A stretch of 32,000 nt of DNA, from positions 330,001 to 362,000 of the forward strand of contig CP001848.1 of the NCBI GenBank assembly GCA_000025185.1. The letters run 5' to 3'. Shown here piece after piece: positions 18,771 to 21,008 of this stretch. The DNA comes from Pirellula staleyi DSM 6068 (GTDB lineage: Bacteria > Planctomycetota > Planctomycetia > Pirellulales > Pirellulaceae). The notes below the pieces were generated by a model that saw nothing but the letters and a program-made list of their open reading frames with translations, searched no databases and was not told the origin of the DNA. The translations under genes were made by a program, and so were the position numbers. The first letter of the stretch is position 1. The number at the start of each line of letters is the position of its first letter.

Positions 18771-18849
18771 GTTAACCGGGCTGCGGCCAACCAAAGGCGA
18801 TTTTCAGAAACAGCCCGGCCCGCGGCTCGGGTTGACCGCCTTGTTCGCT
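18771..18849 (-). other. degenerate or partial attC-like site after the 213-aa cassette ORF
   Basis: The reverse strand begins AGCGAAC-AAGGCGGT-C-AACCCG-A-GCCGCGG 6 nt after the stop, the same arm layout as the three good sites. A partner arm (GGCCGCAGC-CCGGTT) exists, but the R'-proximal part does not pair and no clean GTT box is found, so the left boundary is uncertain. Confidence 0.35.
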
Positions 18850-18855
18850 GCTTCG

Positions 18856-19497
18856 CTACACAATGTACCCATACGCCTGAAATGGAACTGCGCTGATAGC
18901 ATCCGATTTAAACCACTGCACGATTATGTCATGACCTGCGTTGGGCAATTCCCAAAAGGCATTGTGCAATTTGCCGTACTTGAGATCCTCGGCATTGTCC
19001 TCGAAATAGTGTAGTACCGCTGCTGAATCCTTTTCAATCATCGCGAGATATGGTCGGACGTCCAATTCCATTCGAGCAATGGCACATAACCAACCATCGA
19101 TTTGCCAACACGCCTTCGCCTCGATGACATTTTGGATGACTGCGTTTAGGAGCGTTACTAACGCATTTCGGCGATGCGACGGCCAAGCGTGCAACTGCGT
19201 CGAATGTATGGCTCTCGCTGTGACTTCGATGTCAGGCCACCACGACTCGTCGAGAATCGAAATTTCCAGGATACGCGGCAGAAAGAACAAATAGTCGGAA
19301 ACATCGCCAACGGTCAGCAATGCCGAAGATGCGTAGGAGGCGAGGTCCTCAGACGAAAGGGCGCGAAGTGGTGTTGAAAGCAAGTGAGGGATGCGTTTGT
19401 TGTCGATGCAGCACGGGCATCCGTCGATATGACGCGGGACTTTGACCTCGGAAAACGCGCAGTAGAAGTCGTCAATGGCTTGGGTAAGTGCCAGCAT
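18856..19497 (-). CDS. cassette ORF, hypothetical protein (213 aa)
   Basis: Start MLALTQAIDDFYCAFSEVKVPRHIDGCPCCID (ATG 19495-19497) lies just downstream of the attC-like site. The track ORF extension to 19620 reads through that site. No family recognised. Confidence 0.65.
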   Translation of the reverse strand: MLALTQAIDDFYCAFSEVKVPRHIDGCPCCIDNKRIPHLLSTPLRALSSEDLASYASSALLTVGDVSDYLFFLPRILEISILDESWWPDIEVTARAIHSTQLHAWPSHRRNALVTLLNAVIQNVIEAKACWQIDGWLCAIARMELDVRPYLAMIEKDSAAVLHYFEDNAEDLKYGKLHNAFWELPNAGHDIIVQWFKSDAISAVPFQAYGYIV

Positions 19498-19505
19498 CTT
19501 TTTGC

Positions 19506-19595
19506 AGCGAACATTCTGCATCACCGACCGCCGCTGGTGATTTGCCATTATTAAACCAACCCCGAACGGCGGTCCGGTGCATGCGGTTGTTCTTC
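19506..19595 (-). other. attC-like recombination site (90 bp)
   Basis: Reverse strand: GAAGAAC-AACC-GCAT-[G]-CACCG-[G]-ACCGCCG ...33-nt loop... CGGCGGT-CGGTG-ATGC-AGAAT-GTTCGCT. Three perfectly paired stem segments are interrupted by two unpaired G. An AAC box lies 5 nt after the upstream stop codon and a GTT box sits at the far end. Confidence 0.7.
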
Positions 19596-19600
19596 CGAGT

Positions 19601-20032
19601 TCACGATTCTCGGCGAGCAACCGGTAAGTTACTAGCGCAGGATGATTCAGTGGGAAAACGATTCAGGTATTCCCCAAATTCGACCATTGCGGCTTGAAGT
19701 GCCTTGATGACTTTTAATCGCCTAGATTCCTTCAAGAGGTGTCCCGGCAACCGTTCAAACCACCGTTGACTAACGTCGCGTTCAAATCCATGTTCGGTGG
19801 TGTCGAGACGTGAGCTCGGACGTATCTTATGCTGGTAGTACTCCAAAACCGGCTTGATTTGGGCAACGCTACCAAATCGGAAAGTAAAACCGCAGACCTC
19901 GACGCAATATGTCCACACCGGGATGAGTGCTGGATTTGGCGATACGTCATGTGCGGGTAATCCGACATACGCATGAAGATCGAAGTGTTGCGACCAGTGA
20001 CCCTTTCGCTCTTCTTTCCAAATCCGAGCCAT
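19601..20032 (-). CDS. cassette ORF, hypothetical protein (143 aa)
   Basis: Single ORF between two attC-like sites, in the same orientation as its neighbours. No family recognised. Confidence 0.65.
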   Translation of the reverse strand: MARIWKEERKGHWSQHFDLHAYVGLPAHDVSPNPALIPVWTYCVEVCGFTFRFGSVAQIKPVLEYYQHKIRPSSRLDTTEHGFERDVSQRWFERLPGHLLKESRRLKVIKALQAAMVEFGEYLNRFPTESSCASNLPVARRES

Positions 20033-20047
20033 TGAAACACTTTATCT

Positions 20048-20133
20048 GGAGAACGACCGAAAAACACCCGTCGCGACGAGGGTGTTCCATCTCGTAAAGC
20101 CCGATCGCGGTCGGGTGCATTTTCTTGTTAGGC
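20048..20133 (-). other. attC-like recombination site (86 bp)
   Basis: Reverse strand: GCCTAAC-AAGAAAAT-[G]-CACCCG-[A]-CCGCGA ... TCGCGACGGGTG-TTTTTCGGTC-GTTCTCC. The TAA stop of the 102-aa ORF is inside GCCTAAC. The 5' arm is nearly identical to that of site 20452-20541. Confidence 0.65.
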
Positions 20134-20436
20134 GTCTGGTGTATCAGAACTGGGGATGAGTCCTCTTCCAATCAGCATCTCGACCAGCCGGGCGATCACC
20201 GGGTCTGGCACCCCTTCGACCTCGAACACCAAGGCGTGATACCAAGGGTTCGGGTGAACGGTGTCGAAGTTGAAGCGGCAGCGATACTGGCCCGGCCAAT
20301 CGGATAGCTCGCGAAGGTCGTCGCCCATGTCATCGCCCGCGTTGTCAAAGTTGTCGCGTCCGTAGACACTCTCGATGACCCGCAGCGGCACTCGGATCGA
20401 CTTCCACTTGGGTTGATGCTGATAAACGCGGCCCAT
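20128..20436 (-). CDS. cassette ORF, hypothetical protein (102 aa)
   Basis: ATG at 20434-20436 behind GAAGGGA. Bounded by attC-like sites on both sides. No family recognised. Confidence 0.65.
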   Translation of the reverse strand: MGRVYQHQPKWKSIRVPLRVIESVYGRDNFDNAGDDMGDDLRELSDWPGQYRCRFNFDTVHPNPWYHALVFEVEGVPDPVIARLVEMLIGRGLIPSSDTPDA

Positions 20437-20451
20437 CGACGCGATCCCTTC

Positions 20452-20541
20452 GCCTAACGAATCAAGTTCACCCGCCGCCCGATCGATCGATTTTCCATCA
20501 CACTAGCCGTGTCAGCGGTCGGGTGCAACGGCTTGTTAGGC
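20452..20541 (-). other. attC-like recombination site (90 bp) with canonical GCCTAAC ... GTTAGGC boxes
   Basis: Reverse strand: GCCTAAC-AAGCCGTT-[G]-CACCCG-[A]-CCGC ... GCGGCGGGTG-AACTTGATTC-GTTAGGC. The arms pair except for two extra bases in the 5' arm. Confidence 0.75.
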
Positions 20542-20552
20542 CTATTGATGTG

Positions 20553-20981
20553 TCAATCAGTGTCTACGAGTTTCCATTGATCGTCTTCGATTTGCAACTC
20601 AAGATGCCACTGTTGTCCTTTCCGCGCTGGAAGGCTTTCGACTTGCACTAGACAGAATTCGTATTTGTCGGGCTTGTCTGATTTACGGGCGATTAGGACG
20701 TCTTCACCTGCCTTTTGCGTGATGGCTGCGTGGACATCCGCAAACAACTTTATAATTGCTGCACCAGCTTCACTCTTCATGTAATCGACAAACCGTTTCT
20801 TGTCGATTTGGCCACGTAGATGCTGGTGACAGTGGTTGTCGTAGAATGCAGCGAAGTCTTGCTTAATGAGAATAGCGTTCATCGCCTCAACGGCACCAAC
20901 CGGCGTATGTGTTGCTGCGTTGTTGGTGGGATCCGCCGCGAATGCAACCAACATCGCTGCGACGAAAGAGAAAGATGTCAT
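20553..20981 (-). CDS. cassette ORF, secreted hypothetical protein (142 aa)
   Basis: N-terminal signal-like MTSFSFVAAMLVAFAA. GGAGG lies 8 nt upstream of the ATG. The ORF is preceded by a GTTAGGC core and followed by an attC-like site. Confidence 0.7.
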   Translation of the reverse strand: MTSFSFVAAMLVAFAADPTNNAATHTPVGAVEAMNAILIKQDFAAFYDNHCHQHLRGQIDKKRFVDYMKSEAGAAIIKLFADVHAAITQKAGEDVLIARKSDKPDKYEFCLVQVESLPARKGQQWHLELQIEDDQWKLVDTD

Positions 20982-21001
20982 TTGCAGGATACCTCCAAAG
21001 G

Positions 21002-21008
21002 GCCTAAC
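21002..21008 (-). other. isolated GTTAGGC core (R'-type box) at the upstream end of the cassette array
   Basis: The reverse strand reads ...TTATAGTAATT-GTTAGGC-CCTTTGGAGGTATCCTGCAA-ATG. No partner arm of the TGCACCCGACCGC family is found upstream. Confidence 0.4.

Follow-up and report, generated by a model that had tools for sequence, protein, structure and literature searches.

Integron gene cassettes that lie apart from an integron integrase form a recognised class of locus. In the definition used by IntegronFinder (Cury 2016), a CALIN (attC sites in a cluster that lacks integron integrases) comprises two or more attC sites grouped no more than 4 kb apart, and no integrase gene (intI) lies nearby. 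Taxon-specific attC covariance models are available, of which the one for Planctomycetes was derived from 188 sites (Ghaly 2021, Supplementary Data 1). In attC sites, a 6-bp stem separates the extrahelical bases, usually G at bottom-strand position 16 and a conserved T at 23/24, and their location on the arm opposite the AAC triplet favours the bottom strand (Nivina 2016). Here, we analyzed a 32,000-nucleotide stretch of the Pirellula staleyi DSM 6068 chromosome (CP001848.1, positions 330,001 to 362,000; hereafter the window), in which a first-pass annotation made from the sequence alone had proposed an integron-type cassette array. We conclude that this locus very probably consists of four integron gene cassettes without an integron integrase in cis, and hence that it belongs among the CALINs. 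It is a known kind of element, in a phylum with published integrons, CALINs and attC models, and it is consistent with large surveys, which find CALINs to be common and integrons to be present in Planctomycetes, with attC sites grouped by lineage and environment. Our literature searches returned no paper that describes this locus or that treats P. staleyi together with integrons.

The array is read on the minus strand of the window, which is the coding strand. Four successive open reading frames (ORFs) of 142, 102, 143 and 213 amino acids lie on this strand, each followed by one imperfect, attC-type palindrome of 86-92 nt (S1 to S4), and in this respect the description in the first-pass annotation holds. 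The gap between stop codon and site is 11 nt at S1, 0 nt at S2 (an overlap), 5 nt at S3 and 6 nt at S4; at S2, the TAA stop codon of the ORF is contained in the GCCTAAC box. The units (n = 4) measure 404-748 bp and share a single orientation, with one ORF each and an attC site at the 3' end, and all four sites fall inside 2.1 kb. The array has a G+C content of 0.49-0.54 compared to 0.57-0.61 in its flanks, in agreement with the lower G+C reported earlier. The features are as follows, in window coordinates, with a slash marking the crossover point:

21002 to 21008, minus strand: upstream array boundary GTTAGGC, with the crossover at G/TTAGGC; the exact complement of the GCCTAAC of S1, as expected at the start of cassette 1.
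20458 to 21007, minus strand: cassette 1, 550 bp; ORF 20981 to 20553 (142 amino acids); attC S1 20541 to 20452, GCCTAAC...GTTAGGC.
20054 to 20457, minus strand: cassette 2, 404 bp; ORF 20436 to 20128 (102 amino acids); attC S2 20133 to 20048, GCCTAAC...GTTCTCC.
19512 to 20053, minus strand: cassette 3, 542 bp; ORF 20032 to 19601 (143 amino acids); attC S3 19595 to 19506, GAAGAAC...GTTCGCT.
18764 to 19511, minus strand: cassette 4, 748 bp; ORF 19497 to 18856 (213 amino acids); attC S4 18849 to 18758, AGCGAAC...GCTCGGC, decayed.

To identify the palindromes, we began with the published model. The profile hidden Markov model part of the Planctomycetes attC model was run with nhmmer, with filters off, on both strands of the window. 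It matched S1 over positions 1-103, the whole model (23.9 bits, E = 1e-6), and S4 over positions 5-94 (20.5 bits, E = 1.1e-5), and it had no match outside the array. The consensus of the model (GCCUAAC-AAuGC-GUU-G-CAgC ... GCUG-AaC-UucGuC-GUUAGGC) is nearly the sequence of S1. This profile scores sequence and not structure. Because it is blind to base pairing, we also built a covariance model (R1) from an alignment of 109 full-length attC sites of other organisms, with no window sequence included. The loci that supplied these sites were fetched with a motif for the arm shared by S1 to S3 (AACAA-N5-TGCACCSGACCGC-N25-55-SGGTG), which matched the window three times, at these three sites, and never in 100 shuffles of the window. 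Counting one genome per species, at least 120 stretches from other genomes carried the motif, often in arrays with several copies within 8 kb; the matches listed came mostly from Pyrinomonadaceae and other Acidobacteriota, then from Abditibacteriaceae, Planctomycetes, Cyanobacteria and Chloroflexota. The published Planctomycetes profile found further attC sites at these loci.

The alignment bore the marks of a conserved structure. Of its cells, 88.9% were paired and 15 of 20 pairs had changed on both sides; for the helix of the L box and stem, the corresponding figures were 93.4% and 11 of 13 pairs. None of 500 shuffles reached the observed values, and slid controls were 29-46% paired. With filters off, R1 returned exactly four significant matches in the window, all full length, on the minus strand and in the predicted places: S1 at 58.9 bits (E = 1e-14), S3 at 34.1 (1.3e-7), S4 at 33.0 (2.7e-7) and S2 at 30.2 (1.7e-6). 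The next-best match was the reverse strand of S1, with an E-value of 0.1 in the 64 kb searched. The attC model search called for in the first-pass annotation was therefore significant at S1 and S4 with the Planctomycetes profile and at all four sites with R1.

We next compared the sites with the architecture of attC. Terminal boxes of the RYYYAAC/GTTRRRY type with their AAC and GTT triplets, which are invariant in 109 of 109 related sites, are present in S1, S2 and S3; S4 is the exception, with GCT in place of GTT. Folded as DNA, S1, S2 and S3 form hairpins in which two bases bulge from the 5' arm, and their folding energies lie below those of shuffled sequences (z = -3.9, -2.0 and -3.3, respectively). 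S1, S2 and S4 have their bulges at 16 and 23, separated by 6 nt. Two bulges at a fixed spacing of 5-6 nt had been described earlier for the three intact sites; the two bulges stand, and the spacing is not uniform, since the inter-bulge stem of S3 has 5 bp and not 6. S3 also has a CAT/ATG L box in place of GTT/AAC, a two-sided change that keeps the pairing. These sites share with the class 1 integron attC of aadA7 and with the Vibrio cholerae repeats (VCR) the R''/R' boxes (RYYYAAC/GTTRRRY), the unpaired spacer, the GTT/AAC L box, the extrahelical bases 16 and 23 with a 6-bp stem, the variable loop and a bottom-strand T as the second extrahelical base. They differ in the first extrahelical base, which on the bottom strand is C in S1 to S3 as opposed to "usually a G" (Nivina 2016); in full, the two bases are C16/T23 in S1 and S2 and G16/T23 in S4.

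The first-pass annotation had taken the coding-strand G at the first bulge as a sign that strand choice by a cognate recombinase could be unusual. This G proved to be the majority base of the clade: the published Planctomycetes model has 62% G and 33% C at this position, and G is found in 83 of 109 related sites, among them nine of nine that adjoin verified integrases. Read on the bottom strand, column 16 of the alignment (A2) has C in 83 of the 109 sites and G in 24, and at position 23 the coding-strand base is A in all 109. The G is a trait of the whole attC clade and not peculiar to this locus, and the bulges occupy the canonical positions 16 and 23, so there is no ground to expect an unusual strand choice.

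S4 had been described as a truncated site ending at 18771. Instead, it is a full-length attC that ends at 18758 and belongs to a second subfamily, 80-83% identical to sites of Pirellulaceae arrays, in which the R' box reads GTTCGGC as opposed to GCTCGGC in S4. It carries three decay mutations, namely GCT for GTT in the crossover triplet and two broken stem pairs, and because of these it folds no better than shuffled sequence (z = -0.26). Judged by these features, S1, S2 and S3 look competent for recombination, and S4, in which the GTT of the crossover and two stem pairs are gone, is probably dead. The copy of S3 in a closely related genome (18161-18250 of locus L182) has 10 differences over 90 positions, most of them in the loop, where the adjoining cassettes are about 2% different; this copy fits the attC model better (47.6 compared to 34.1 bits).

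The boxes of successive sites carry a further signature. At the upstream boundary, GTTAGGC (21008 to 21002) is complementary to the GCCTAAC of S1 at seven of seven positions, as is the GTTAGGC end of S1 to the GCCTAAC start of S2. The end of S2, GTTCTCC, does not pair with its own GCCTAAC and is complementary to the GAAGAAC start of S3 at six of seven positions; the end of S3, GTTCGCT, matches the AGCGAAC start of S4 at all seven. The six bases after the G close each attC yet belong to the next cassette, because circles are cut at G/TT, and complementarity to the box of the next site is accordingly the mark of cassettes inserted as circles. The same pattern holds in other genomes: of 56 pairs of adjacent sites, 40 had a tail with full complementarity to the box of the next site, and 8 had one with full complementarity to the box of its own site.

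We then asked whether attC sites of this family occur with integron integrases. Using an IntI1 sequence solely as a tblastn probe, we found full-length IntI1 relatives in five of the motif-fetched loci, within a few kb of the attC arm motif. All five pass the NCBIfam model TIGR02249, "integron integrase", with 382-456 bits against a cut-off of 265. One of them, at 382 bits, is the intact IntI of a Pirellulaceae genome, F1F2.bin.526, where it lies divergent from three attC sites (locus L104). A second planctomycete locus with a verified IntI (L038) comes from a Planctomycetia genome. There, intI (3546-4526, plus strand) lies upstream of an array with attC sites at 5501, 6526 and 7167 (plus strand), on the same strand as the array and not divergent from it; we take this to be the "inverted" layout described for some lineages. 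Another contig of F1F2.bin.526 (L109) carries a four-site array in which an S1-type site (GCCTAACAAGTCGTTGCACCCGACCGC...) occurs with S4-type sites (...GTTCAACCGGAGCCGCGGGCC...GTTCGGC), a mix as in the window. The presence of both subfamilies in this array suggests that the block in the window was taken from a longer one. The nearest Planctomycetes chromosomal integrons, those of F1F2.bin.526 (L104 and L109), share with our locus the attC architecture, the subfamilies and the coding-strand bulged bases. They differ from it in that L104 has an intact, divergent IntI and the window has none. Taken together, the published profile, R1, the circular-permutation signature and the link of this attC family to verified IntI proteins bear out the attC and gene-cassette reading of the first-pass annotation.

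No intI gene or intI pseudogene was detected in the window with NCBIfam, Pfam or tblastn searches using the five verified IntI proteins. The one real tblastn match was the 431-amino-acid integrase of a genomic island (7739 to 9034), which reaches only 25 bits on TIGR02249, compared to the cut-off of 265. A weak match at 22119-22247 (plus strand) is arginine-rich, contains a stop codon and is antisense to a real gene, and we regard it as chance. The truncated recombinase that adjoins the array is ruled out as an intI remnant: it is a paralogue of the island integrase and not an IntI, and it is phage-type, as first described, being an ordinary island integrase 43% identical to residues 290-420 of the 431-amino-acid protein. 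Beyond the left end of the window, about 9 kb read from a 98% identical genome contained no IntI by tblastn with the same five queries; beyond the right end, no recombinase is among the gene calls, with their Pfam hits, for about 6 kb of a metagenome contig in which the same gene is present. In total, the intI-free stretch examined around the array extends about 28 kb on one side and about 17 kb on the other, so that the earlier description, CALIN-like with no integron integrase in sight, held for the window and its nearest flanks. In place of the adjacent intI of a complete integron, there are only the island integrase and the C-terminal fragment of its paralogue. With four clustered attC sites and no intI nearby, the locus is a CALIN by the IntegronFinder definition.

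Set beside described CALINs (Cury 2016; Néron et al. 2022), the array is typical. It contains two or more attC sites (four in this case) on a single strand with single small ORFs between them, no intI within 4 kb or in the approximately 17-28 kb examined here, and no recognisable intI pseudogene, as in 95% of CALINs; like most of them, it holds cassettes of unknown function and no resistance genes. Particular to this array are the decayed distal attC and the fusion to a truncated island integrase beside a tRNA-Glu hotspot, and nothing essential is different. The first-pass annotation had also likened the array to sedentary chromosomal integrons. The Vibrio superintegron, which is of this sedentary kind, is likewise chromosomal with cassettes of unknown function, and S1, S2 and S3 do share an arm. 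The likeness is weak, since here there are only four sites from two subfamilies and no integrase, whereas an integron is assigned to the sedentary class if it is present across a species or has more than 19 attC sites (Cury 2016).

The mechanism expected of such an array would run as follows. In each unit, a single promoterless ORF precedes its attC. With an IntI present, the attC's bottom strand, here the plus strand of the window, would fold into a hairpin that has an R box of 7 bp, a central spacer left unpaired, an L box, the extrahelical bases 16 and 23 and a variable loop. IntI would bind the folded strand and cut between A and C of 5'-AAC-3', which corresponds to G/TT on the coding strand. 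Recombination between two attC sites would release a circular cassette, and recombination of attC with an attI site, or with a genome site of the GWT type, would insert it. With no IntI nearby, the array would be static unless an integrase acts in trans.

Several findings weigh against reading the locus as a cassette array of this kind. The published Planctomycetes profile misses S3 and matches S2 in its 5' half only, at a non-significant E-value of 2. R1 is not fully independent, because the loci used for training were fetched with a motif derived from the window, though 58 of the 109 sites lack that motif. The absence of intI covers the window and flanks of about 9 kb and 6 kb in a genome of 6.2 Mb. 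Comparison of related genomes, proposed earlier as a way to detect cassette turnover, was possible in the only close relatives, the 98% identical genomes; the array layout is identical there, with no cassette gain, loss or shuffling. Finally, homologues of the cassette 4 protein in three other Planctomycetes genomes are ordinary genes with no attC adjoining. A metagenome scan with a 258-amino-acid protein encoded beside the array returned only paralogues with at most 57% identity and no attC, and is hence silent on an empty site or turnover.

The alternative that survives best is a variant of our conclusion, in which rearrangement detached the array as part of a split integron, with intI or a complete integron elsewhere on the P. 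staleyi chromosome serving it in trans. In about half of CALINs, IntI is encoded on the same replicon, and rearrangement is listed among their origins (Cury 2016). The visibly truncated distal end of the array and the still well-formed S1, S2 and S3 fit this idea. However, the intI-free stretch around the array is long, and none of the best 120 matches in a search for relatives of the Pirellulaceae IntI was named P. staleyi, in a list that is far from exhaustive. The decay of S4, moreover, suggests relaxed selection. We regard a split integron as possible, although it is not what we expect to find.

A second alternative holds that there never was an integron here and that a trans-acting integrase inserted the cassettes directly at a non-att genome site (attG, consensus GWT). 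IntI does insert cassettes at GWT sites, which has been proposed as an origin of small CALINs (Loot et al.). The upstream junction, which reads AATTG/TTAGGC, is compatible with a GTT target, and the window has no intI pseudogene. What follows S4, however, is the apparent start of a fifth cassette where a target would be expected, and a deletion terminates the array. In addition, the occurrence of the two attC subfamilies together in a Pirellulaceae array suggests that the block came from a longer array. On balance, we think direct insertion unlikely.

That the palindromes are repetitive extragenic palindromic (REP)-like repeats or transcription terminators after small genes, unrelated to integrons, finds some echo in their position just past each stop codon, in their G+C-rich hairpins and in a terminator scan that catches parts of S2 and S3 (yet with 5 sites where 3.2 were expected), but we give it almost no credence in view of the lack of any copy outside the array on either strand of the 32-kb window (64 kb searched; a dispersed family was the outcome the first-pass annotation had named as telling against its integron reading), the conserved AAC and GTT boxes 7 nt from each end, the verified IntI genes that adjoin the same attC family, an Rfam search of the window that matched a tRNA alone and nothing at the array, and the complementarity of each 3' box to the 5' box of the next site, for which such elements would have no reason.

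The two ends of the array have the following features:

21048 to 21077, minus strand: promoter-like site TTGACA-18 nt-CAGAAT, about 70 nt upstream of the first cassette boundary, from a consensus scan only.
18699 to 18757, minus strand: probable stump of a fifth cassette, its start including CTCGGC at 18758-18763, apparently cut off by deletion.
18282 to 18698, minus strand: last third of an island-integrase gene, 43% identical to residues 290-420 of the 431-amino-acid integrase at 7739 to 9034.
18285 to 18306, plus strand: second copy of the tRNA-Glu 3' end; right end of a 10.5-kb island and old attachment site of the decayed island to which the truncated integrase belonged.

For the upstream boundary there are two readings: an attI-like or secondary site of which it forms the right end, and an earlier attC of which it is the remnant. 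The promoter-like site could serve as a Pc-like promoter from which the cassettes would be expressed. The scan of this region found two sites where 2.0 were expected from shuffles, so the site is not significant on its own. In L104 of F1F2.bin.526, a TTGACA promoter-like element lies about 55 nt upstream of the G/TT junction, so that the spacing in the two loci is 55-70 nt; the layout is similar, with no sequence in common. It is possible that the upstream region is an attI remnant with its promoter; attI sites have no general consensus, and no sequence here is in common with the attI region of L104. Within the cassettes, the scan found one promoter-like site only, inside ORF4, and its total was not above chance.

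At the distal end, the array is probably the stump of a longer one, cut by a deletion. The intact counterpart of the S4 tail, TTCGGC, is the complement of GCCGAA(C), an R'' box often seen in Pirellulaceae arrays, as would suit a fifth cassette. Downstream of S4, the ORF list and R1 gave no further ORF or attC before the integrase fragment, and about 60 nt past S4 the sequence enters the last third of the tyrosine-recombinase gene. The N-terminal 289 residues of this integrase are nowhere in the window. We therefore rejected insertion of the array into the integrase gene, and the missing N-terminal part argues for a deletion at this junction. Next to it lies the 10.5-kb island (7795-18284), at the 3' end of the tRNA-Glu gene, which encodes the tyrosine integrase (7739 to 9034), a Prim-Pol (primase-polymerase) protein (9090 to 10358) and a type III restriction-modification pair, res (12647 to 15316) and mod (15313 to 17184). 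An exact 19-nt repeat, GACTCCCGTAGGGAGTACT, is present at 7776-7794 and 18288-18306. The segment 7795-18284 is absent from the 98% identical genome GCA_002483025.1 and from the metagenome contig SRR845265, and from the former we infer an order of events. An old island would have integrated at tRNA-Glu; a deletion would then have joined what was left of the integrase gene of that island to a cassette array longer than the present one; and the 10.5-kb island would have inserted later at the same tRNA.

We also examined the cassette genes. None of the four proteins was assigned to a family by Pfam, NCBIfam or PADLOC. The cassette 1 protein is identical to Psta_0266 and has a signal-peptide-like N terminus. 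The cassette 3 protein has a 47.5% identical homologue in a Pyrinomonadaceae (Acidobacteriota) genome (L087), flanked on both sides by attC sites of the same family (62 and 64 bits) with the CAT/ATG L box seen in S3, which indicates that this gene and its site travel together across phyla and adds to the evidence for cassettes. The cassette 4 protein belongs to a family of more than 200 members, the named ones from Planctomycetes. In its 221-amino-acid form it is identical to Psta_0264, whose GenBank start at 19521 is an ATG within attC S3. The ATG at 19497, right after the cassette boundary, is the more likely start, because most members of the family are 213-217 amino acids long. The AlphaFold model of this protein is all helical and confident (predicted local distance difference test score 93.8), and it had no match in the PDB with an E-value better than 2. 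Only one locus tag is available between Psta_0264 and Psta_0266, and one of the two middle cassette ORFs therefore appears to be unannotated in GenBank.

The wider distribution of the sites extends well beyond Planctomycetes. Near-identical attC arms that contain an exact 23-nt motif are present in Acidobacteriota, Armatimonadota, Planctomycetota, Cyanobacteria and Chloroflexota. Among the loci L004-L123, the members of one attC subfamily (...AACAAGGCGCTGCACCCGACCGCCTACAGC...CGGCGGCGGGTGAGCTTGGTCGTT...) hardly differ, even in the loop, between Abditibacteriaceae, Cyanobacteria (Microcoleus, Phormidium, Leptolyngbya) and Chloroflexota (for example L111, L084, L081, L054 and L034), a conservation of sequence across phyla that is striking for sites usually described as conserved only in structure. 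Tentatively, and with more doubt than conviction, we suggest that the integrases of this clade have an altered pocket for the first extrahelical base and that the shared arms mark one broad-host-range cassette pool and not convergence. Were this the case, orphan arrays would be live nodes of cross-phylum gene exchange in soil and freshwater. The P. staleyi locus provides a dissected orphan cassette array in a cultured, completely sequenced planctomycete, and the cultured strain permits trans-mobilisation tests that are impossible with metagenome-assembled genomes. It also appears to preserve a layered record of mobile elements at a single tRNA-Glu, with an old island surviving as an integrase stump, a truncated array fused to it and a newer 10.5-kb island with restriction-modification genes.

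Two observations concern the surroundings of the array. Divergence from the 98% identical genome (L001) is mosaic: 19956-22896 contains one difference, and its flanks differ by 2-3.5%. This 2.9-kb block of low divergence comprises cassettes 1 and 2, the upstream spacer and two ORFs, with its left edge near the S2 boundary, and is likely to be a recent recombination tract. Further along lies the gene of an extracytoplasmic function (ECF) sigma factor, encoded downstream and identical to Psta_0269. Beside it, the ORF of the 258-amino-acid protein (22010-22786, minus strand) matches no Pfam family. It has 58 relatives in metagenome contigs, with local identity of up to 57% (about 40% over the full length), which indicates that the protein family is real and widespread; the protein may be a partner of the sigma factor.

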